Part shown: positions 287 through 51,405 of the stretch, in pieces
How the letters are laid out: every line of letters starts with the position of its first letter
How positions within the stretch are numbered: position 1 is the first letter of the stretch
DNA from: Escherichia phage PSD2002
Length of the DNA stretch: 64,000 nt
Sequence record: OK335775.1
Reading direction: 5' to 3' (one strand)
The notes under the pieces: model-generated
What the model saw: the letters and a program-made list of their open reading frames with translations, nothing else
Databases searched by the model: none
Told to the model about the DNA's origin: nothing
Program-made: the position numbers and the translations under genes

Positions 287-1081
287 CTATAGCCAGGAAC
301 CGTAGATAACACCTGTATTATGCCAAGTAGGAGAACTTCCAGCAACAGCAGCTCCTGCGCCGCCACCAGCGCCGACTTTTAGAACTTTACCACCATCAGA
401 CCATGCATTCTGACCTGCGCCGCCAGCATCGCCACCCTGACCAGAGTGAGCATTTCCGTATTGATAACCACCTCCTGGACTATCCAAAGAAGCTCCGCCA
501 CCTGAATATCCACCACCACCGCCTGGGCCAAATGGTCTTCCTCCACCACCGCCAATATCTTGCCAGTTTGCACCAGAGTGAGGACGATAAGCGATACCAC
601 CGCCGCCACCGCCACCGCCGCAGATAACCCCACCATTATTAATTCTTAAACGACCGCCAATATCATTTACAATACAAGTTCCACCCAATTGGCCGTTGCC
701 ATCGCCGCCCGAGTGGGTCCATCCACCTTGACCACCTCGGCCCCATATATGAACCCCACCACCAATATTCAATTGAACATATTCGTTTGGAGTATCCCCA
801 TACATAAAGAACAATGGAACATCACGGGTATAAGATACTAATGTATCTGTAAGATTAAACACAATAGGCGCACTACCGGCTTCAAAGCAACGGTCGCGGA
901 ACCATTGCCCATTAAAGTTATGGTCCCCACCTAAAGTATGAATTACTTCAACAGACCGACCGTTCATATTACTCATCCAAAACGGAATACCCATTCTCAA
1001 TCGCTGGGCGGCGCCGCCCATCCAATTTTGTCCTGTATTAGCTACTGCAGACGATCCTACCCACGGTCCTCCAACTGCCAT
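287..1081 (-). CDS. 38: Long tail fibre tip adhesin gp38 (T2-type, glycine-rich motifs)
   Basis: ORF track 287..1093 (TTG at 1093); ATG at 1081 with GGAGGT RBS preferred. Conserved N-terminal region ([25 protein letters not shown]) then poly-Gly motifs separating variable segments, typical of T2/T6 gp38; follows gene 37. Confidence 0.8.
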
Positions 1082-1093
1082 ATAAACCTCCAA

Positions 1094-1107
1094 GGGGCCT
1101 AAGCCCC
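1094..1107 (-). promoter_or_regulatory. Short GC hairpin between genes 37 and 38 overlapping gene 38 RBS region
   Basis: ggggc-ctaa-gcccc palindrome. Confidence 0.35.
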
Positions 1108-1112
1108 TCTTA

Positions 1113-4100
1113 TTATTTTAACAATGATTTAATTAGTGCTTTAAGTTCTTCAATCTCTGATTTCAATTCTGCTATTTCTGCAGTGTGCTCATTGATTGCA
1201 GCTGTATTTAAACCAATTACACCGTTATAGTTTAAACGAAGTAAAGCTTCACCGTCAGGGTCGCCTTCAACCAATTCAGGTAAAATAGCTTGAACTTCTT
1301 GAGCAATTAAACCAGCATTAGGTTCCCATTTCTGATTACCTTCTTCATCCAGGCCACGTTTCTGCATATAAGTGTAACCGTTAATTTTTGAAAGTGTTTG
1401 TGAAGCATTTTCAAATTTAACAAGGTCTTTTTTAACACGAATATCAGAACGAACATAAACATCACGAACAAATGTCGAATAGCTATCGTTTGCCTGAACT
1501 AAATGGCCGTGAGAAATAATTGCTCTGCCAACTTCTGTCCAAAAAGATCCATTTGAATCCCAAAGGCCCGGATGAGATTGATACATTGTACCCCAGCTTG
1601 CAATATGTACACTATTAGCAACCATATTGATTCGGCCGTCACCGCCGTGTGATAATCCTGTGTCGTTATCACCAATAGCAATACTAGGAGAGCCTAATCC
1701 ATTAACAGTACCAACACCAATTGCAGGAGTCTGGACTAAAGACGGGGCGTAAAATAAACCACTAGAGTGGAATTCGAAAATACCTACAGGACCGTTGCCA
1801 TTTTCCTGGTTACCAACACGAATTATAGCTTGTCCCCATGTTTGTGGAGTACGACGCATACCGAAATCAACACCTGATATGTATCCTTCGTTAGTAATAC
1901 CAGATTTTCCTTTGATAATCGGATAATAACTATCATTACCGACGTTGCCAAAATCCACAAATACAGGAGCTTCTAAACCCCATTGGTCACCCCATGCACC
2001 AGATTGATGAGCCACCCATTGTGCAGCCTTTATATAAAGTCGGTCCCTATTAAAATAAAAAGTATCCGACCCCTGAGGAGCTAAACCAACTTCTCCACTA
2101 TTATGAATATTAACGCCTGAATTAGTTTGGAAACTATAAAACGATAAGTTGTTATCAGCGCCGCCATTACCAACATACCAGTTATTAACGCCTGCTTTTT
2201 GTCCTTTCACATAACCAGATTCGGTTGCAGCACTGTTAATAACAATAGCATCCGAGTTTGCATTAAGAGTTAAGCGGCCTGTCATTGTGTCGCCTTCTTT
2301 AGAAACACGGCTATAGACAGCACCAAGAAGATTGGTTACATCACCGGCAGAAGTAAACGTTTTCCAGATATCAGACCAGATGTTACCATTTTTGGCAATA
2401 GTAGCTTCACCACCGCCAACCTGCACGTTATCCGGGAAATTAACTGTACCATCAGCATTAAATCTTGATGTATGACCTTGGGTCCCGTCTTCTTTGTAAT
2501 GATGCAAAACAAAAGTCCCGGAATTAATTTCAGTACCTAAAGACCAAACAGCTTTTCCTTGTAAGAATTTCTGCTTAACAATAGGATAATATTTACTTAC
2601 CGCGTCATCATCAATTTCTTGGAAAACAGGAGCTGCTTGTGCATATTGAATATCATAACCACCCGCACCGGCGCCGTGTCCACCGAATTTAATATAACCG
2701 TTTGCTGCAAAAGAAGCATAACTCAAATCTAAGTCAGGAATAACTACCTTACCATTACTTAAATCTATACTTAAAGGACGAAGTGGCCCTATATCGCCGG
2801 TTTTACCTTCACCAAAGGCGGTAGGAATAATATGTAGGCTTGTTTCTGAACGGCGGAAAATGGCGCCGTAGTCATCATTCCAAATTCTAAGAGCATTGAC
2901 AGCATTACCAGCAATAGTGCCGGAGGCGTTAACTTCTTTACCGACATTTATGCTTTCGTTTACATTCATGCCACCATTTAAATGGGCTTCAACTTTGTCA
3001 TCGGTTTTGCGCTGAATATACCACATCCAACTAGTGGCATCAGATATTTCCATTACGTTTTTGCGGTCACCAGCGACATTAGTAAAGGTATTACCCCAAA
3101 CGCTGATAGTCATATTATCAACTGAACTACTTCCTGTTGTATTTCCTCTGAACATAAGAGTCGAAGCGTTGTTGCGGCCATCAATATTAACCGAACCACC
3201 AACAACATCAATATTACCAGGAGTAACTAACAAACCACCAGCGGTGTTAACGTTTGTAGTACCCTTACCACGGAAATAGTGGTGATAATTGCCACCTTGA
3301 TAATAACCTAAAAGAGTTTGACCGTCACCATACGCGTTATTATCATGATAAGTGACAACCGTCGCCAAAGCATAGTTTTCCGACGGAGGAGTGGTTAAAT
3401 CGGTACCGTTTACAGAATAACCCATAACCATTTTTCTAAGACTGGTGGTTTCTGCAGGGCCGTACAGGAAAGTTCTCGTGCCGTTATTAACGCTGAAATA
3501 ATATCCATCCTGATGCCATTTTAACCCGGTGTCATTATCGCCAAGAGCAATTGAAGCCGTTCCTAATTCAGAATATCCTTTAGAGTCGCCTGGGGTGCCT
3601 ACAGAAATAGAATGACCAGCTTTCAATCCGCCAGACCAGGTAAACGACCAAAGATAAGCTTCTAAGCCATCTCCAGCATACCAGGTTATTCCATCACTAT
3701 CTTTAACTTCATGGAATATACGTGCTCCTACAGCATTTCGCATAACACGGAGGCGGTTAATAGCCGTTTCGCTTTCTGTCATTGGAGTGTTATTTGCTAA
3801 TGAATAGATATCATAATCGCCCGTCTTCTTCCCATTTGTAATAACTTTATCGGTCAAAATCTGAGGAGACGAAATAGATTTCCATGCTGATACTTCAGGT
3901 GAAGTAAATAGGCCACTGCCTGAAAATGCATAAGTGCTTTCGCTTGCAGTAGAATAATCCTGTACGCGAATATTAACTACTTGGTTAGTTGCTCCTGCAT
4001 TATTAGGAGAAAAAATAATACCACGCTCACGGTCATCGCCATCAAAGAAACGAAGATGAGAAGTTGAGGCACTCTTAGAAATAAGTTCACCACCGTGGGT

Positions 4101-11661: not shown

Positions 11662-11944
11662 TTTTGATGGAGCGGTTAATACCGCTTCCGAACCTGTCCA
11701 TGTATTGGTAAATAAACAACAGAATGGTCTCGATATTGAGGCCTTTGTTGAGGCTGAAGGTTGTAGCTACCTCGAAGCGGCTACCGCATGGTTGGAAGAG
11801 AACAGCATCCCTGAAGGTAACTTTGCTCGTTATTTGCCTGCAGGAATTATTGATAAAATTATGAACGAAGCCATTGATGATAACTTGCTTCGACCTTCAA
11901 TGGCTCGAACGCAAAAAACTAATACTCTGGATTTCTTGTTATGA
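11642..11944 (+). CDS. 33: Late transcription co-activator gp33
   Basis: 100 aa acidic protein between dsbA and 59, as in T4. Confidence 0.65.
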   Translation: MTQSLNDFDGAVNTASEPVHVLVNKQQNGLDIEAFVEAEGCSYLEAATAWLEENSIPEGNFARYLPAGIIDKIMNEAIDDNLLRPSMARTQKTNTLDFLL

Positions 11945-12594
11945 TTAAGATTCGCATGCCACCAAACAATAACCGTATGGTGAATGGTAAGAGCGTATAT
12001 TCACTATACTTAATGCTCAAACATCACTTCAATGCCAAATACGACGTTATAAAATATAACTGGGTCATGCGAATCTCTGATACGGCTTATCAAAAACGTC
12101 GTGACAAATATTTCTTTGAGAAATTGAGTGATAAATACACTTTGAAAGAGCTTGCTCTTATCTTCATGAGTAACTTGGTGGCTAACCAAGACGCATGGAT
12201 TGGCGACATCAGTGATGCTGACGCCTTAGTCTTTTACCGAGAATATATCGGTAGACTTAAAAGAATAAAACAAGTTTTTGAGGATGATATCAAAAACATC
12301 TATTATTTCAGTAAGAAAGTGGAAGTTAAAGCGCTTTCTGAAATTTTTGATTATAATAAAAAAGTTAACTCGAGCTATATTTTTAAGCTCCTTCAATCGA
12401 ATGTTATTTCATTCGAAACGTTTATTTTGCTTGATTCATTTATGGATATAATTGATAAACATGATGAACAGACCAACGATTTAGTGTGGTCTAAGTATTC
12501 GACTAAATTAAATGCTTACAAAAAAATTCTTATAGTAGATTCTATTGAGGCTCGTAAATTGTTCATTGAAACAATTAAGGGTTGTAAATTTTGA
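11941..12594 (+). CDS. 59: Helicase loader gp59
   Basis: 217 aa; ...DVIKYNWVMRISD..YQKRRDKYFF...LVANQDAWIGDISDADALVFYREYIGRLK... matches T4 gp59. Confidence 0.9.
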   Translation: MIKIRMPPNNNRMVNGKSVYSLYLMLKHHFNAKYDVIKYNWVMRISDTAYQKRRDKYFFEKLSDKYTLKELALIFMSNLVANQDAWIGDISDADALVFYREYIGRLKRIKQVFEDDIKNIYYFSKKVEVKALSEIFDYNKKVNSSYIFKLLQSNVISFETFILLDSFMDIIDKHDEQTNDLVWSKYSTKLNAYKKILIVDSIEARKLFIETIKGCKF

Positions 12595-13226
12595 ATATAG
12601 TTTATAAAATGACTTGGCTTAATCGTCAGGCTAATAATATTAAGCCGTTTTCGTACATAGGTTCTAAAACTAATTGTACTTTTGAAAATGGCGTGATTAT
12701 TGACTGTAAAGGTAAAGAGTATTGGACCTCTTGCGAGCAATCAAGATTTAAAGAGGCCATCGAAGAAGAAAAACCTATTGTTGAAATTTTGGCTATAACG
12801 CCATTTGATATTGTTATTAATATTGAACGTTCAGAACAATTGGAAGTTCAAGCTAGAGATAATGATGATTATTTTAATTTGGTTTATGCCGGTGGCGGAT
12901 TTGGAGTCTTTGGATGCACTCACCCAGCCAAACGTCCTGAAGTTAGAGCCCATATGAAAGCTGCTAACTATATGAATCAACCCGATTACCGTCCTTGGAA
13001 AACTTCTAGAGCAAACCCTTTAGATTGGATGCTTAGTGATATTGCTTATACTAATTATTGTATAATTAATTCTAGTGGAAGAGCTTGTGGATGGAGGCGT
13101 CTCATTAACTCTGGTATAAATGTTAGTGAAACTACATCAAAGAGTATGATTAAACAATTTAATGAGGGTTGGATTCCTAATGATGACCCTGAATTCATTA
13201 AGTTAAAAATGCTTTATTCGAAGTGA
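12591..13226 (+). CDS. GIY-YIG family (Seg-like) homing endonuclease, free-standing, between genes 59 and 32
   Basis: 211 aa from TTG at 12591 overlapping gp59 TGA (TTGA); N-terminus IVYKMTWLNRQANNIKPFSYIGSKTN fits GIY...YIGS motif; FGVFGCTHP...EVRAHMKAAN resembles I-TevI linker / NUMOD3 region; same location as segG in T4. Catalytic residues not all evident, may be degenerate. Confidence 0.5.
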   Translation: MNIVYKMTWLNRQANNIKPFSYIGSKTNCTFENGVIIDCKGKEYWTSCEQSRFKEAIEEEKPIVEILAITPFDIVINIERSEQLEVQARDNDDYFNLVYAGGGFGVFGCTHPAKRPEVRAHMKAANYMNQPDYRPWKTSRANPLDWMLSDIAYTNYCIINSSGRACGWRRLINSGINVSETTSKSMIKQFNEGWIPNDDPEFIKLKMLYSK

Positions 13227-13324
13227 TATATAATTACTTCATCTTCAAAACCTAGTTATCAAGGTAAACGTGATAACAACAACTGTTAATAAATTTATTA
13301 AATATATCAAATAAGGTAAATAAT

Positions 13325-14236
13325 ATGTCTATGTTTAAACGCCGTAATCCTGCTGAACTTGCTGCTCAACTGTCTGCAATGAAAGGTGGCTCTTCTTTCT
13401 CGTCTGATGACAAATCCGAATGGAAATTGAAAGATGACAATGGCGTAGGAACCGCAGTTATTCGATTCCTTCCTTCGAAAAACGAAGCTAATCCATCCCC
13501 ATTCGTTAAGCTTGTTAACCATGGTTTTAAGAAAAATGGTCAGTGGTATATCGAATCATGTACGTCTACTCATGGTGATTTCGATTCATGTCCTGTATGT
13601 AAATACATGAACCAGAATGATACCTTTAATACTAATAATGCCGAATACAAACTGATGAAACGTAAAACTTCCTTCTGGGCTAACATCCTTGTTATTAAGG
13701 ATAGTGCAGTGCCTGCTAACGAAGGTAAAGTGTTTAAATTCCGTTTCGGTCAGAAAATTATGGATAAAATCAACCAGATGGTTGAAGTTGATACCGATAT
13801 TGGTGAAGTGCCGGTTGACGTAACATGTCCGTTTGATGGTGCGAACTTCGTACTGAAATCTAAGAAAGTTGGCGACTTCAAGAACTATGACGATTCCAAA
13901 TTCATGGGTCAGTCTGAAATTCCTAACATCAATGATGAAGCTTACCAAGCTAAATTGATGGAAGAAATGCACGACCTTTCTAAACTGCTCGATTTCAAAT
14001 CATTCGAAACTAACGAAGCCAAGTTTAAGAAAGTTGTTGGTACAGCTGCTCTTGGTGGTGCTGCCGCTAAAGCTTCTGCAGCCGCTGATAAGATTGGTGA
14101 TGACCTGGACGCATTCAGTGCAGACCTTGATGCATATGATTCTAAACCATCTACACCGACTCGTTCCACTACTCCTGAGCCGTCAGTAAGTCCTTCTGAT
14201 GACGATGGTCTGGACGACCTGTTAGCTGGTCTATAA
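13325..14236 (+). CDS. 32: ssDNA-binding protein gp32
   Basis: 303 aa (301 aa from second ATG at 13331, T4 length); [13 protein letters not shown]...[10 protein letters not shown]...[12 protein letters not shown]...WANILVIKD...GKVFKFRFG... and acidic C-terminus match T4 gp32. Confidence 0.9.
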
Positions 14237-17165: not shown

Positions 17166-19421
17166 ATGCAAGTACAAAAAAGTAGTGGTGTATCCCAAGA
17201 TTTTGACGCACAAAAAATTATTAAAGTTCTGACTTGGGGCTGTGAAGGAACCCAAATCGACCCCTATGAATTATACGAAGAAATCAAATCCCATCTTCGT
17301 GACGGTATGACTACCAAAGATATCCAAAATCTGACTGTTAAGGTAGCAGCCAACCTTATTTCGGTTGAAGAACCTGATTACCAATATGTTGCTGCAAAGC
17401 AATTGATGTTTGCACTGCGTAAAGAAGTTTACGGCCAGTTTGAACCGCGTAGTTTTATCGACCATATTTCCTATTGCGTTAACGAAGGTAAATATGACCC
17501 CGAATTGTTGTCTCGATATTCTGCAGAAGAAATTACTTTCTTAGAATCTCATATCAAGCATGAACGTGACTTTGAATTAACCTATGCGGGTGCAATGCAG
17601 CTGAAAGAGAAATATCTGGTTAAAGATAAAACAACCGGTAAAATCTACGAAACCCCTCAGTTCGCTATCATGTGTATTGGTATGGCCTTACACCAAGACG
17701 AGCCAGGTAATCGTTTAGCACATATTATTCGTTTTTATGATGCCGTAAGTACTCGTCAGGTTTCATTACCAACTCCTATTATGGCTGGAGCACGTACACC
17801 AACCCGTCAATTTAGTTCTTGTGTGGTTATTGAAGCAGGCGACTCACTGAAATCTATTAACAAAACTGCTAGCTCAATAATTGAATACATTTCTAAACGT
17901 GCCGGTATTGGTATCAACGTTGGTATGATTCGTGCTGAAGGTTCTCGTATTGGCATGGGTGAAGTCAAACATACAGGCGTTATTCCATTCTGGAAACATT
18001 TCCAGACTGCTGTTAAATCATGTTCACAAGGTGGAATCCGTGGCGGCGCTGCTACTGCTTATTATCCTATTTGGCATTTGGAAGTTGAAAATCTGCTCGT
18101 TCTGAAAAACAACAAAGGCGTAGATGAGAACCGTATTCGTCATATGGACTACGGAATCCAGATGAACGACCTTATGATGGAACGTTTCGGTAAAAATGAT
18201 TACATCACGCTGTTTAGTCCTCATGAAATGGGTGGTGAGCTTTATTATTCTTATTTCGAAGACCAAGACCGTTTCCGTGAATTGTATGAAGCAGCTGAAA
18301 AAGACCCTAGTATTCGTAAGAAACGTATTAAAGCACGTGACCTCTTCGAATTGTTCATGACCGAACGTTCAGGCACTGCACGAATTTATCCTCAGTTCGT
18401 TGATAACACTAACAACTTCACACCATTTATTCGTGAAAAAGCTCCTATTCGACAGAGCAACTTGTGTTGTGAAATTGCTATCCCGACTACTGATGTAAAT
18501 AGTCCTGATGCTGAGGTAGGCTTGTGTACTTTGGCAGCATTCGTATTGGATAACTTCGATTGGCAGGACCAAGACAAAATCAACGAGCTCGCTGAAGTCC
18601 AGGTACGTGCACTAGATAACCTGTTGGACTACCAAGATTATCCTGTTCCTGAAGCTCTGAAGGCCAAGAAACGTCGTAACCTGGGTGTTGGTGTTACTAA
18701 CTACGCCGCTTGGTTGGCAAGCAACTTTGCTTCTTATGAAGACGCTAACGATTTAACTCACGAACTGTTTGAGAGATTACAATATGGACTTATCCGAGCA
18801 TCAATCAAGTTGGCCGAAGAAAAAGGACATTGCGAGTATTATTCAGACACTAAATGGTCTCGAGGCGAATTACCTATCGACTGGTACAATAAAAAGATTG
18901 ACCAAATCGCAGCCCCTAACTATGTTTGTGACTGGGCGTCGTTGCGGGAAGACTTGGCTAAACATGGCATCCGTAATAGCACATTATCAGCACTTATGCC
19001 GTGTGAATCAAGCAGCCAGGTTTCCAACTCTACAAACGGTATCGAACCTCCACGTGGTCCGGTAAGTATTAAAGAATCTAAAGAAGGTAACTTCCGTCAG
19101 GTAGTTCCTAATGTAGAACATAACCAAGGGCTCTACGATTACGCTTGGACCCTCGCTAAGAAAGGTAATAAACCTTATCTTACCCAAGTGGCGATTATGT
19201 TGAAATGGGTGTGTCAATCGGCATCAGCTAACACGTATTATGACCCACAGATTTTTCCAAAAGGAAAAGTTCCGATGTCTGTAATGCTTGATGACCTGCT
19301 ATATTTCTGGTATTATGGCGGAAAAAATCTCTATTATCACAATACCCGTGATGGCTCTGGTACTGATGACTATGAAATCGAAACTCCTAAAGCCGACGAT
19401 TGTGCAGCTTGTAAGCTTTAA
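17166..19421 (+). CDS. nrdA: Aerobic ribonucleotide reductase large subunit
   Basis: 751 aa; class I RNR alpha motifs (ATP-cone N-terminus, NLCCEI, C-terminal CxxC tail). Confidence 0.95.
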   Translation: MQVQKSSGVSQDFDAQKIIKVLTWGCEGTQIDPYELYEEIKSHLRDGMTTKDIQNLTVKVAANLISVEEPDYQYVAAKQLMFALRKEVYGQFEPRSFIDHISYCVNEGKYDPELLSRYSAEEITFLESHIKHERDFELTYAGAMQLKEKYLVKDKTTGKIYETPQFAIMCIGMALHQDEPGNRLAHIIRFYDAVSTRQVSLPTPIMAGARTPTRQFSSCVVIEAGDSLKSINKTASSIIEYISKRAGIGINVGMIRAEGSRIGMGEVKHTGVIPFWKHFQTAVKSCSQGGIRGGAATAYYPIWHLEVENLLVLKNNKGVDENRIRHMDYGIQMNDLMMERFGKNDYITLFSPHEMGGELYYSYFEDQDRFRELYEAAEKDPSIRKKRIKARDLFELFMTERSGTARIYPQFVDNTNNFTPFIREKAPIRQSNLCCEIAIPTTDVNSPDAEVGLCTLAAFVLDNFDWQDQDKINELAEVQVRALDNLLDYQDYPVPEALKAKKRRNLGVGVTNYAAWLASNFASYEDANDLTHELFERLQYGLIRASIKLAEEKGHCEYYSDTKWSRGELPIDWYNKKIDQIAAPNYVCDWASLREDLAKHGIRNSTLSALMPCESSSQVSNSTNGIEPPRGPVSIKESKEGNFRQVVPNVEHNQGLYDYAWTLAKKGNKPYLTQVAIMLKWVCQSASANTYYDPQIFPKGKVPMSVMLDDLLYFWYYGGKNLYYHNTRDGSGTDDYEIETPKADDCAACKL

Positions 19422-19474
19422 TAAAATCTGATTATAATTGACTCATGGATGAGTCACTAACAAATGAGAATAAT

Positions 19475-20614
19475 ATGTCTACAGTTTTTAATACCACCCC
19501 AGTTGATGTTTTAGTCGAGCCGATGTTCTTTGGTTCAGGATTGGGTATTGCCCGTTATGATATCCAACGTCATAAAGTATTCGAAGAGCTTTGTGAAAAG
19601 CAGTTGAGTTTTTTCTGGCGTCCAGAAGAAGTCAACTTGATGATGGATGCTGCTCAATTTAATAAGCTTCCACAATTCCAACAAAATATTTTTACCAATA
19701 ACCTGAAGTATCAATCACTTCTGGATAGTATCCAAGGACGTGCTCCTTCTGCTGCACTTCAAGCCTTGATTTCAGACCCTAGCCTTGATACATGGGTGGC
19801 TACATGGACCTTTAGTGAGACTATTCACTCTCGTTCATATACCCATATCATGCGTAACCTCTATACAGACCCGTCAAAGGTATTTGATGAAATTCTGTTA
19901 GATGACGCTATTATGAAACGTGCTGAATCTATTGGACGTTATTATGATGACGTTATTAAGAAAACTCGCTATTGGCAGAATGCTTTAGAAGAATATCATG
20001 AGTTTAGCGAAGGCGTAAAACAGGCTAAATACGAACTAATGCGTTCTCTTTACCTCTGTCTGCACGTAATCAACGCCCTGGAAGCTATTCGTTTTTACGT
20101 ATCTTTCGCATGCACCTTTAACTTCCATAAAAACATGGAAATCATGGAAGGTAATGCTAAGATTATGAAGTTCATTGCACGTGATGAACAGCTTCACCTT
20201 AAAGGTACTCAGTACATTATTCGTCAACTCCAACTTGGTACTGATGGCGACGAATGGGTTAAAATTGCTCAAGAGTGCGAACAAGAAGCAGTTGATATTT
20301 TCATGGAAGTTAACCGTCAAGAAAAAGAATGGGCTGCTCACCTGTTCAAAGATGGTACTTGCCCTGGATTAAATACTCAGAACATGGGTGCTTTTGTAGA
20401 TTACCTGACAGTTTCTCGTATGAAGCAATGTGGCTTACCGTGTCCTATTACTGATGCTCCTACTCGCCATCCGTATCCTTGGATTCGCGAATACCTGAAC
20501 TCTGATTCAGTGCAGGCTGCTCCTCAGGAAGTGGAAATCAGTTCTTATCTTGTAGCACAAATTGATAACGATGTCGATGAAAAAGTAATGGCATCGTACA
20601 AGAAATATTTTTAA
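19475..20614 (+). CDS. nrdB: Aerobic ribonucleotide reductase small subunit (uninterrupted, no intron)
   Basis: Track ORF 19445..20614; start at MSTVFNTTPVD chosen by similarity to T4 NrdB N-terminus; di-iron ligand motifs present; continuous ORF. Confidence 0.9.
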   Translation: MSTVFNTTPVDVLVEPMFFGSGLGIARYDIQRHKVFEELCEKQLSFFWRPEEVNLMMDAAQFNKLPQFQQNIFTNNLKYQSLLDSIQGRAPSAALQALISDPSLDTWVATWTFSETIHSRSYTHIMRNLYTDPSKVFDEILLDDAIMKRAESIGRYYDDVIKKTRYWQNALEEYHEFSEGVKQAKYELMRSLYLCLHVINALEAIRFYVSFACTFNFHKNMEIMEGNAKIMKFIARDEQLHLKGTQYIIRQLQLGTDGDEWVKIAQECEQEAVDIFMEVNRQEKEWAAHLFKDGTCPGLNTQNMGAFVDYLTVSRMKQCGLPCPITDAPTRHPYPWIREYLNSDSVQAAPQEVEISSYLVAQIDNDVDEKVMASYKKYF

Positions 20615-48992: not shown

Positions 48993-49220
48993 TTAGAAAT
49001 CTTCCTCTTCCTCGTCGTCCATCGACTCCAATTCAGCTCTCTTACCAGCCAATGCATCACGCACGCTAATATCATCCGAATCACGAAGTTCGGCTTCCTT
49101 ACTACGAGTTTTGTAATACTTTTCCAATTCCTTCAGACCATCCATAGTCTGACAAGAACCAATTTTAGCCATGAAGCTTTCAATAGATGCTTCTTGAATA
49201 ACTTCTTTAAAGGTTTTCAT
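48993..49220 (-). CDS. UvsW.1-like small acidic protein
   Basis: 75 aa, acidic C-terminus (DDEEEEDF); lies downstream of uvsW as T4 uvsW.1 does, but here separated from uvsW by an endonuclease gene. Confidence 0.5.
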   Translation of the reverse strand: MKTFKEVIQEASIESFMAKIGSCQTMDGLKELEKYYKTRSKEAELRDSDDISVRDALAGKRAELESMDDEEEEDF

Positions 49221-49912
49221 AAATCCACCTGTTTCATTAAATTTCTGATTTTGTGACGAGAAAGACCCGTGGCTTCAGAAGCTTGTTTCATCGAGCCATA
49301 TTCAACACCATTTATAGTAACCTTTTTAGCTGCCGGGTTTTTAGATGGGTCTTTATATCTTTCTTTAGCTTTATCTGAAATTTTCTTAGAAGCTTCAGGG
49401 GTATGATTTTTACCATACATGCCGTTGCCGGCACCGGAATTTCTTTCAGATATAGCTTGACATTGTTCTTGCGTGTATTTATAAGGATTCGCTTTTTTAG
49501 TTGCAGATATTTTATCGCCCCATAAAATAGGTCTACCTTTAAATAAATTGCTCATATATTCTTTATGAGCTTCAGTGTGGTGCTTACCGTAAAATGGATT
49601 TCCTTCTCCAGTCTGAAGAATTGCCAATTGCCTACGTTCCCACCCATATGATTTACTAAATTGTCTTTTATGAGTCCTGGAGCTCATACCCATAGAAATA
49701 ACAGCTTTTATGAGACCGTAGTTATTTGGATAAATTTTGGCCAGTAATTTATGAGCTATAAAATGTTCTTCTGGGGTAAGGCGTACTCTATTTTCTTGAG
49801 TATCAGGCCCACCAATACACGACGGGATAATATGATGAGATTCTGTATAACCCATAGGTTTAGAAGCCTTTCGGCTTCTAATTAAATTGTCATAAATTTT
49901 TTGATAATTCAA
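49217..49912 (-). CDS. Free-standing HNH homing endonuclease (I-TevIII/Mob-like)
   Basis: 231 aa starting at TTG overlapping uvsW TGA; N-terminus MNYQKIY; HNH core GYTESHHIIPSCIGGPDTQENRVRLTPEEHFIAH; two NUMOD3-like repeats (G.GNP.YGKHHT.EA, G.GNGMYGKNHT.EASKKIS); C-terminal HTH-like INGVEYGSMKQASEATGLSRHKIRN. Confidence 0.8.
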   Translation of the reverse strand: MNYQKIYDNLIRSRKASKPMGYTESHHIIPSCIGGPDTQENRVRLTPEEHFIAHKLLAKIYPNNYGLIKAVISMGMSSRTHKRQFSKSYGWERRQLAILQTGEGNPFYGKHHTEAHKEYMSNLFKGRPILWGDKISATKKANPYKYTQEQCQAISERNSGAGNGMYGKNHTPEASKKISDKAKERYKDPSKNPAAKKVTINGVEYGSMKQASEATGLSRHKIRNLMKQVDL

Positions 49913-51405
49913 ATTTGGACCTCTTTCATGACATAATTAAATTTCTCGTCTGCGTACCGTTGAATACGTTCTAATCCATGTTTTAATGCATAATTTAGGT
50001 GAATGTATTTCTTTTTAGAATCTTTGGATTTAGGTTTCACCCCCATGTCATCGATGATGTCAAAAACTTGGGCTGTTGTTTTAGATTTGTGTTTACGTAA
50101 AACCCTTCCTATGGTTTGCAGTACCGTTACCTTGGATTTTACTGGATGGGCAAATACAACGTGGTGAAGGTTCTTAACGGAAATACCTGTAGAGAACACA
50201 CCATAACTTGCCACAACAATAATACCCTTACCATTTTCCGCCATTACCTTCAGAGCATTACGCGTTTCGGTATTAACTTCACCCGATACGTAATAAACTT
50301 CTTTATGTTGCTCTTTAACCATTTCAAAAAGAGTTTTACCGTGTTCGATGTTTTTAAACATCAGGAATACGTTCTCTTCTTTCTTAGCGAGTTTAACAGC
50401 TAAATTAGCAACCCATTTATTACGACGAGTAGCCTTAGTAATGACCTTGATTTCTGATTGGTAATCTTTACCTTTCATTTTAACCGTGAATTCGTCTGGG
50501 TATCGAAGGAAAATACTGTTGATTTTAAGGTCAGTAACCTGTCCTTCTTCCATTAATTGGGAGGTGGATACTGGCTTAAACACATCACCAAACAAGCCCA
50601 TATATTGCATTAAATTAGCTTTACCATCTTTTAAAGAACCCGACAAACCGAATTTAAACATACAGTTGGTTAGGCCTTCGATGATAGTAGAAATAGATTT
50701 ACCTGTAGCCAAATGGCATTCGTCGTTCATAAACATACCGAACTGAGCAAACCATTCTTTAGGTTGCTTGATAGCGGTTTGATAAGTTGAAACATAAATC
50801 ATTGCATCGGAATCACGAGCAGTACCTGAACGAATACCAAGCATTGCGGCTTTAGGGAACAGACGATAATCGATGAAGTCATTAATCATCTGGTCGACAA
50901 GTGCAGTAGTAGGAACTAATATAAGGATTTTACCTTCATAGTTCTCAACGTAATATCGACTCAGGAGCGCCTGGATTAATGATTTACCTGCGGATGTAGG
51001 TAAATTCAGAATTGCACGACGTTTTGTCAGGCCGTTGTATACGGCTTCATTCTGATACCAATGAGGCTCAATCTTGGTAGACCCTGAATAAATTTCTTGA
51101 GAAGCCACCCATGAGTCAAAATCTTCACGAGAAATATCTTCCTGTTCAAGAATACGTGGGTCAATCCACAGAGAGTATTCAAATTGTTCAGCGAACTTTT
51201 TAATTTGAGGAACCAATCCATATGGCAGTTTACGGTTATAATCCAGAAGGCGAATACGTCCGTCCCATTGACCATAACGAAATTTAGGGTTGAATTTATA
51301 TCCATCAGCTTCAAAGCTAAAATAGTCTCTGAGTTCGTAGAATGTAGATTCATCGCATTCAATACGGACATGACTAAAATTATCAAAATGTACTTGAATT
51401 TGCAT
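49909..51405 (-). CDS. uvsW: DNA helicase UvsW
   Basis: 498 aa; SF2 helicase motifs (PTSAGKS Walker A, DECH box) and end-to-end similarity to T4 UvsW. Confidence 0.9.
   Translation of the reverse strand: MQIQVHFDNFSHVRIECDESTFYELRDYFSFEADGYKFNPKFRYGQWDGRIRLLDYNRKLPYGLVPQIKKFAEQFEYSLWIDPRILEQEDISREDFDSWVASQEIYSGSTKIEPHWYQNEAVYNGLTKRRAILNLPTSAGKSLIQALLSRYYVENYEGKILILVPTTALVDQMINDFIDYRLFPKAAMLGIRSGTARDSDAMIYVSTYQTAIKQPKEWFAQFGMFMNDECHLATGKSISTIIEGLTNCMFKFGLSGSLKDGKANLMQYMGLFGDVFKPVSTSQLMEEGQVTDLKINSIFLRYPDEFTVKMKGKDYQSEIKVITKATRRNKWVANLAVKLAKKEENVFLMFKNIEHGKTLFEMVKEQHKEVYYVSGEVNTETRNALKVMAENGKGIIVVASYGVFSTGISVKNLHHVVFAHPVKSKVTVLQTIGRVLRKHKSKTTAQVFDIIDDMGVKPKSKDSKKKYIHLNYALKHGLERIQRYADEKFNYVMKEVQI

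Follow-up and report, generated by a model that had tools for sequence, protein, structure and literature searches.

The 64,000-nucleotide stretch of the Escherichia phage PSD2002 genome analysed here (record OK335775.1; hereafter the window) very probably carries an intact, mobile segG. As judged by sequence comparison, this gene for a free-standing GIY-YIG homing endonuclease has been inserted at the exact junction of genes 59 and 32 in a Dhakavirus. The open reading frame (ORF) 12591..13226 (+) encodes a free-standing protein of 211 residues and has gene 59 and gene 32 on either side in the same orientation. This placement had been given in a preliminary description of the window, and it was confirmed by the ORF list and by the Pfam matches of both neighbours. 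The two peptides quoted in that description, IVYKMTWLNRQANNIKPFSYIGSKTN and FGVFGCTHPAKRPEVRAHMKAAN, were both found in the translation of the ORF. The source of the window is a T-even phage, a JS98-like member of Dhakavirus, and the 1.5 kilobases around the ORF showed 98.7% identity to LHE83 and 98.4-98.5% identity to MX01 and Bp7.

Identity of the gene

The protein matched the PHROG 7504 'homing endonuclease' profile from end to end (1-208 of 210 profile positions, E 6e-114). The identity to T4 SegG was 59% over residues 1-208 (E 2e-74, tblastn to T4 segG), and the gene order 59-segG-32 is the same in T4 and in the window. In the literature, T4 segG is described as lying between genes 32 and 59 and encoding a free-standing GIY-YIG endonuclease (PMC2988022; PMC2330249; PMC535899), and GenBank labels its product, at exactly the same locus, a GIY-YIG site-specific homing endonuclease. 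Both the Seg-type GIY-YIG reading of the preliminary description and its claim that the location is that of T4 segG were upheld by these results. The NCBI already holds the identical protein ("homing endonuclease [Escherichia phage PSD2002]"). The LHE83 record annotates the coding sequence at the same coordinates with the same TTG start, and the VR5 record carries the remark "similar to bacteriophage T4 SegG (gp32.1)". As a selfish element, the segG homologue is of a known type, stands at its known locus and is already annotated in public records.

Start codon and junction with gene 59

The TTG start codon of segG (12591-12593) overlaps the TGA stop codon of gp59 (12592-12594), as the preliminary description had stated. 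An in-frame TAA is present at 12585-12587, two codons upstream, so that TTG 12591 is the only start able to include the residues NIVY. In T4, SegG starts with ATG-AAT-ATA-GTA-TAT (MNIVY) one base past the gp59 TGA (junction TGAtATG); the window reads TTG-AAT-ATA-GTT-TAT at the equivalent place. The overlap, followed by NIVY or NVVY, was found in 8 SegG-type loci of 3 genera, namely Dhakavirus (the window, Bp7, VR5, AnYang and NC-G), Kanagawavirus (ZX14) and Gaprivervirus (RZ and VR7). The gene 59 stop codon was TGA in 11/11 segG-carrying loci and TAA in most of the empty sites, and T2-like empty sites match T4 exactly through the first base of this stop codon. The comparison covered 43 loci in all. 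Where the window has its Shine-Dalgarno-like AAGGG, the sequence is AAGGG, AAAGG or AAAGGG in the TTG-type loci, with AAGAG in AnYang; it is AAATCT (Lys-Ser) in the empty-site JS98 and the ATG-type T4.

Translation from the ATG at 12609 would instead give a 205-residue protein from which both the first strand and its 'GIY' tyrosine would be missing, and the TTGA overlap would then be coincidental. ATG is the commoner start codon, and it was chosen in three RefSeq records (Bp7 1710..2327, VR5 1510..2121 and AnYang 2189..2806; loci L003, L005 and L008). However, the five codons before this ATG encode NIVYK, like the MNIVYW of T4 SegG, despite synonymous differences in the DNA, and the AlphaFold2 model has a confident beta-strand at residues 2-8. 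Residues V4 and Y5 are near-invariant in the wider family. NC-G, RZ and VR7 have the TTGA junction and NIVY or NVVY yet no nearby in-frame ATG, and the one in ZX14 does not come until codon 14. The records of LHE83, ZX14, NC-G, RZ and VR7 are annotated from TTG, and the Shine-Dalgarno-like AAGGG stands 9 nucleotides before the TTG of the window. A start at ATG 12609 is thus very unlikely, and the TTG start is well supported by the comparison of sequences. The RefSeq ATG starts of Bp7, VR5 and AnYang probably truncate the protein, omitting the catalytic NIVY strand with its 'GIY' tyrosine, and should be moved to TTG.

The GIY-YIG domain

The same residue mapping to I-TevI was obtained with MAFFT, hhalign and BLASTP. 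In this mapping, Y5 of the window protein corresponds to I-TevI Y6, Y22 and G24 to Y17 and G19, E79 to the catalytic Glu E75, and N96 to the conserved Asn N90. The 'GIY' and 'YIG' tyrosines are present as I3-V4-Y5 and Y22-I23-G24, with a spacing of 16 residues versus 10 in I-TevI. The alignment with SegG and I-TevI, which had been proposed as a check on the preliminary description, therefore bore out an N-terminal catalytic domain, with both tyrosines, the glycine, the Glu and the Asn on I-TevI positions and the Arg not. The remark in that description that the canonical Arg and Glu are not obvious stands for the Arg, I-TevI R27 being unmatched, but not for the Glu.

The AlphaFold2 model, for which an 11-sequence alignment was the input, had a mean predicted local distance difference test (pLDDT) score of 80.5. 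Residues 1-97 and 141-211 were confident and residues 98-140 were not. The N-terminal part showed the three-stranded sheet and helices of the I-TevI/UvrC catalytic domain. Structure comparison, unlike the sequence profiles, did link the protein to GIY-YIG. A Foldseek search of the PDB ranked 1ln0_A (the I-TevI catalytic domain) first, with a weak score (E 0.47), and phage endonucleases of the SegG, GIY-YIG and NUMOD types were returned from BFVD.

When 1.84 billion representative proteins were searched, 232 relatives were obtained, most of them alike over residues 1-100 only and with varied C-terminal regions; 68 distant ones were sampled for conservation. Among those sampled, which share the N-terminal domain, NUMOD3 was present in 42/68 and PF19835 SegE_GIY-YIG in 3/68. 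The near-invariant positions were V4, Y5, R12, P19, Y22, I23, G24, S25, K26, K42, Y44, S47, E79 and N96, and all of them are kept in the window protein. Y5, Y22, E79 and N96 were each found in 67/68 relatives. The conserved basic residues were R12 (60/68), K26 (67/68) and K42; R52 was conserved only within the SegG clade.

No Arg was found at the position of I-TevI R27 in helix alpha-1, where the aligned segment CTFENGVIID contains none and a beta-hairpin (residues 28-43) is predicted. This Arg is missing across the whole SegG clade, including the biochemically active T4 SegG, and its absence therefore characterises the clade and is no sign that this copy has decayed. R12 or K26 may stand in for it in the window protein.

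The GIY-YIG and NUMOD profile search suggested with the preliminary description gave no match. Pfam PF01541 GIY-YIG was not found in the window protein at E<=1, and neither GIY-YIG nor NUMOD3 from Pfam was found at E<=10 in 11 SegG family members, including a near-identical T4 SegG protein (P0008). The NCBIfam GIY-YIG profile matched neither the window protein nor T4 SegG, and a PDB sequence-profile search with the family profile gave no match. As T4 SegG was missed too, the failure of the profiles is uninformative about degeneration. Standard GIY-YIG profiles miss the SegG clade, so automated screens would undercount such endonucleases. With hhalign, the 68-sequence N-domain profile was aligned in a sensible register both to I-TevI alone and to a 9-sequence I-TevI family, at a probability of 1-2%.

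An alternative is that the N-terminal domain is not GIY-YIG at all, the IVY...YIG match being spurious and the fold another one. The lack of a significant profile link to GIY-YIG families or PDB sequences, the hhalign probability of about 1-2% and a Foldseek E of only 0.47 would fit this. Against it, independent alignments put Y5, Y22, G24, E79 and N96 on their I-TevI counterparts, some distant relatives match Pfam SegE_GIY-YIG, and the literature accepts T4 SegG as GIY-YIG. We regard a different fold as extremely improbable.

The linker block

The FGVFGCTHP..KAAN block (GGGFGVFGCTHPAKRPEVRAHMKAAN), part of the linker that the model predicts with low confidence, was aligned weakly to I-TevI residues 96-124, past the catalytic domain (BLASTP E 0.10, a single and non-significant comparison); the THP..K of the block was aligned to I-TevI residues 100-118, with THP on THP in hhalign. 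The preliminary description had compared the block with the I-TevI linker and NUMOD region. The weak likeness to the post-catalytic part of I-TevI held, but the NUMOD label did not, since NUMOD3 (PF07460) had no Pfam match in the window protein at E<=10. A remnant of shared ancestry is a plausible source of the likeness. One further protein, P0096, gave eight matches to the linker and was rejected as a repetitive junk protein, not NUMOD3.

Intactness of the gene

According to the preliminary description, the protein may be a degenerate or domesticated endonuclease. Catalysis would then be lost, and the protein would be kept for DNA binding or regulation or the gene for gene 32 expression signals. 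Three observations could be read in this way: the canonical Arg is missing at the I-TevI R27 position, the GIY-YIG profiles are blind to the protein, and in T4 the promoters of gene 32 are located within segG, so that the gene would tend to be retained (PMC2988022). However, the same 'defects' are present in T4 SegG, an active site-specific endonuclease, and the residues that are invariant over the 68 distant relatives are all kept, including Y5, Y22, G24, E79 and N96. The ratio of nonsynonymous to synonymous substitution rates (dN/dS) of segG was 0.107 versus VR5 and 0.159 versus ZX14; segG is under purifying selection here. Genomes that are otherwise near-identical differ in having or lacking segG, and it is flanked by a divergent patch; the two together argue for recent mobility. 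Moreover, segG ends ~35 nucleotides before the gene 32 leader elements, and JS98, which is without segG, expresses gene 32 anyway. The 'degenerate or domesticated' label is not supported for this copy, with E79 and N96 in place and a dN/dS of 0.11-0.16, and we consider it improbable.

Mobility and the divergent patch

The segG gene was missing from JS98, WG01, QL01 and four IMG/VR Dhakavirus contigs, in which the spacer between genes 59 and 32 is 83-84 nucleotides long and holds no ORF. The insertion boundary is the gp59 stop codon. Compared with JS98, the window had mismatches at 7/550 positions (1.3%) in the first 550 nucleotides of gene 59 and at 16/104 (15%) in the last 104. In gene 32 the mismatches were 37/228 (16%) in the first 228 aligned nucleotides and 19/675 (2.8%) in the remainder, a contrast with a Fisher p of 3e-11. 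The fixed differences between phages with and without segG run no further than 13558. A foreign-looking patch of ~1 kilobase that holds segG in otherwise near-identical genomes is what homing co-conversion would be expected to leave.

Gene 32 is the probable target gene of the window SegG, by analogy with T4, in which SegG cleaves gene 32 (PMC2988022). Codons 40-49 of gene 32 hold a run of eight third-position changes, all of them synonymous. The run is no more than a candidate target or immunity site, and within the patch it was not significant (permutation p 0.16). T4 and T2-like phages are identical over these codons. Elsewhere in the window, nrdA (17166..19421) and nrdB (19445..20614) are adjacent, whereas in LHE83, otherwise the closest phage, they are separated by a homing endonuclease gene, a further presence/absence polymorphism.

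Several of the results weigh against an intact, mobile GIY-YIG gene at this locus. The protein is missed by the GIY-YIG profiles (Pfam PF01541, NCBIfam and the PDB profile search), the I-TevI family could be aligned with it only marginally at the profile-profile level (P about 0.02), and the I-TevI Arg27 position is unmatched, with a predicted beta-hairpin in place of helix alpha-1. In Bp7, VR5 and AnYang, RefSeq has the gene start further downstream, at the ATG that corresponds to 12609 of the window. Ordinary recombination, with a distant phage as partner, could have produced the patch in place of endonuclease-driven conversion. Finally, we infer all three of the nuclease activity, the cleavage site and the UUG use of the window SegG.

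Other alleles at the junction of genes 59 and 32

Genes 59 and 32 meet at a hot spot: diverged SegG-type alleles, 30-42% identical to the window protein and with the same TTGA junction, are carried there by NC-G (L007, 1492..2121), vB_EcoM_RZ (L009, 1201..1839) and VR7 (L010, 1201..1749). The target specificity of these alleles is probably unlike that of the window SegG.

Two side observations were made at this locus. In AnYang (L008), an extra annotated homing endonuclease gene is present at 842..1528, between genes 33 and 59 and just upstream of the same segG allele. In contig IMGVR_UViG_3300045988_128797 (L035), a T4-type segG at 3156..3795 was matched by tblastn in two overlapping pieces in different frames (residues 1-56 and 53-211), which suggests that this copy is frameshifted and decaying or that it contains a sequencing error.

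A second endonuclease gene with a TTGA overlap

The preliminary description had noted two unrelated endonuclease genes sharing the TTGA overlap, and at the sequence level this was found to be so for 12591..13226 (+) and 49217..49912 (-). The latter is a free-standing homing endonuclease gene of 231 residues, and its TTG start overlaps the TGA of an upstream 498-residue ORF, 49909..51405 (-). The start/stop overlaps between long ORFs were scanned; they were mostly of the ATGA type, and only these two TTGA overlaps were convincing. The 49217..49912 protein has no similarity to the SegG-type protein, and it is rare, being found at >=95% identity in only 2 phage records. A position between nrdA and nrdB, as in LHE83, was considered for the second TTGA endonuclease gene and discarded; the gene is not located there in the window. 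Its TTGA overlap fits the published view of low expression through coupling to upstream genes.

Expression and proposed homing mechanism

No T4 late-promoter consensus (TATAAATA) was found within 12000-13330, and a sigma-70 scan gave background level only. Rfam returned only a sub-threshold chance match to a snoRNA on 12400-13500, and RNA folding around the start site gave no convincing sequestering structure (z -1.7). Start/stop overlap has been proposed as a limit on endonuclease translation (PMC2988022).

We propose that segG has no promoter of its own and would be read from the gene 59 message. Ribosomes ending gp59 at UGA would re-initiate at the overlapping UUG, aided by the AAGGG within the gp59 codons, and the weak start codon together with the coupling would keep the level of the nuclease low. 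We infer both the use of UUG and this termination-reinitiation coupling. In a mixed infection with a relative that lacks segG, the C-terminal domain would bind a site in the gene 32 of the relative and the N-terminal domain would cut. Repair from the segG-carrying genome would then copy segG with the adjoining ends of genes 59 and 32, giving co-conversion and marker exclusion. For T4 SegG, co-conversion with marker exclusion against T2 has been shown experimentally, T2 gene 32 being excluded in crosses (PMC2988022; PMC2330249; PMC535899).

Four points are modestly new. A UUGA-coupled UUG start is conserved, and a Shine-Dalgarno-like sequence is embedded in gene 59; this start recurs in an unrelated endonuclease gene of the same window; in the SegG clade, the basic residue of the active site would have a non-canonical position; and three RefSeq ATG starts are likely mis-annotated. 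A UUGA-coupled UUG that is kept in three genera and in an unrelated endonuclease gene fits very low translation of homing endonucleases, kept so by the phages or by the elements. If this is true, the UUGA of the second, unrelated gene would point to convergence, with selection favouring coupled expression of phage homing endonucleases at a very low level. A joint reading remains tentative and is, on balance, doubtful: the SegG clade might be a non-canonical GIY-YIG branch with a hairpin for helix alpha-1 and charge supplied by R12/K26, the UUGA and Shine-Dalgarno throttle might be co-converted with the gene, and low coupled expression might have arisen convergently. The overall significance is small, as this is a recognisable segG homologue already labelled as a homing endonuclease in GenBank.

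Flanking sequences and coordinates

The gene 32 start in the window (13325..13333) is ATG TCT ATG (MSMFKR), 2 codons more than in JS98 (MFKR); the MSMFKR form is common to VR5, NC-G, RZ and VR7. The window sequence 13261..13296, CAAGGTAAACGTGATAACAACAACTGTTAATAAATT, is similar to the pseudoknot region in the leader of T4 gene 32 (GAGGTAAAGTGTCATAGCACCAACTGTTAATTAAATT). This pseudoknot-like sequence lies ~35 nucleotides 3' of the segG stop in the window, and in T4 it overlaps the segG frame. The coordinates of the features are listed in Table 1.

Table 1. Features of the segG locus and of the second endonuclease gene, in window coordinates.
Feature	Position	Strand	Basis or content
segG-type free-standing homing endonuclease gene, TTG start	12591..13226	+	ORF list; 211 codons plus TGA
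N-terminal GIY-YIG catalytic domain, residues 1-97	12591..12881	+	IVY (Y5), R12, YIG (Y22-G24), K26, Y44, S47, E79, N96
Poorly ordered linker, residues 98-140	12882..13010	+	pLDDT 39-63; includes GGGFGVFGCTHPAKRPEVRAHMKAAN block (12900-12968)
C-terminal helical domain, residues 141-211, probable helix-turn-helix DNA-binding module	13011..13223	+	
TTGA junction, segG TTG start overlapping gene 59 TGA stop	12591..12594	+	Read directly in the sequence
Shine-Dalgarno-like AAGGG, 9 nucleotides upstream of TTG	12577..12581	+	gp59 codons Lys-Gly; putative function
Divergent patch versus segG-less JS98	12491..13558	.	Last ~100 nucleotides of gene 59, segG, intergenic leader, first ~234 nucleotides of gene 32
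Eight synonymous third-position differences, gene 32 codons 40-49, Dhakaviruses with versus without segG	13442..13471	+	Candidate target/immunity site
Gene 59 (helicase loader), upstream neighbour	11941..12594	+	Pfam T4_Gp59_N/C, E 4e-47 and 8e-39
Gene 32 (single-stranded DNA-binding protein), downstream neighbour	13325..14236	+	Pfam gp32, E 1e-51
Second free-standing homing endonuclease gene, 231 residues	49217..49912	-	PHROG 655, E 5e-53; two NUMOD3 motifs; MobE-like N-terminus

Comparison with known systems

The closest known system is T4 SegG (gp32.1), with which the window protein shares full-length homology (59% identity over residues 1-208), size (210 residues in T4 and 211 here) and the MNIVY N-terminus. 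Both genes are inserted directly 3' of the gene 59 stop and 5' of gene 32, T4 segG has no promoter of its own, as is proposed for the window gene, and both are missing from close relatives (T2-like phages for T4, JS98-like phages for the window). They differ at the junction, where the T4 AUG lies one base past the stop (UGAuAUG), whereas the window UUG overlaps the gp59 UGA (UUGA) and is preceded by a Shine-Dalgarno-like AAGGG that T4 lacks. The window ORF also stops ~35 nucleotides short of the gene 32 leader pseudoknot-like sequence, whereas the T4 ORF overlaps the leader. As 41% of the residues are unlike, the target sequence preference of the window protein may differ from that of T4 SegG.

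The SegG-type alleles of NC-G, vB_EcoM_RZ and VR7 (gp32.1) resemble that of the window in the TTGA junction, the first ~60 residues and the locus. The linker and C-terminal halves have diverged, with an overall identity of only 30-35%, and the VR7 protein has only 182 residues.

I-TevI, the T4 td intron endonuclease (catalytic domain 1LN0), matches the window protein at the Tyr, Tyr-x-Gly, Glu and Asn positions. In both, a flexible linker is followed by a C-terminal DNA-binding module, a probable one in the window protein, and the short THP..K segment past the catalytic domain could be weakly aligned. However, the sequence similarity is not significant (BLASTP E 0.10), and the Arg27/His31 helix alpha-1 of I-TevI is replaced by a predicted beta-hairpin (residues 28-43). 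Strands 1 and 2 of the window protein are joined by an additional loop that bears the conserved R12, and the protein has neither a zinc finger nor a NUMOD3 profile match. I-TevI is intron-encoded, whereas the window gene is free-standing.

The overlap itself is paralleled by T4 mobE, a free-standing endonuclease gene whose start overlaps the stop of the upstream essential gene nrdA (UAAUGA), an arrangement proposed to limit synthesis (PMC2988022). MobE, however, belongs to the HNH family, and mobE starts with AUG, compared to UUG in the segG of the window.

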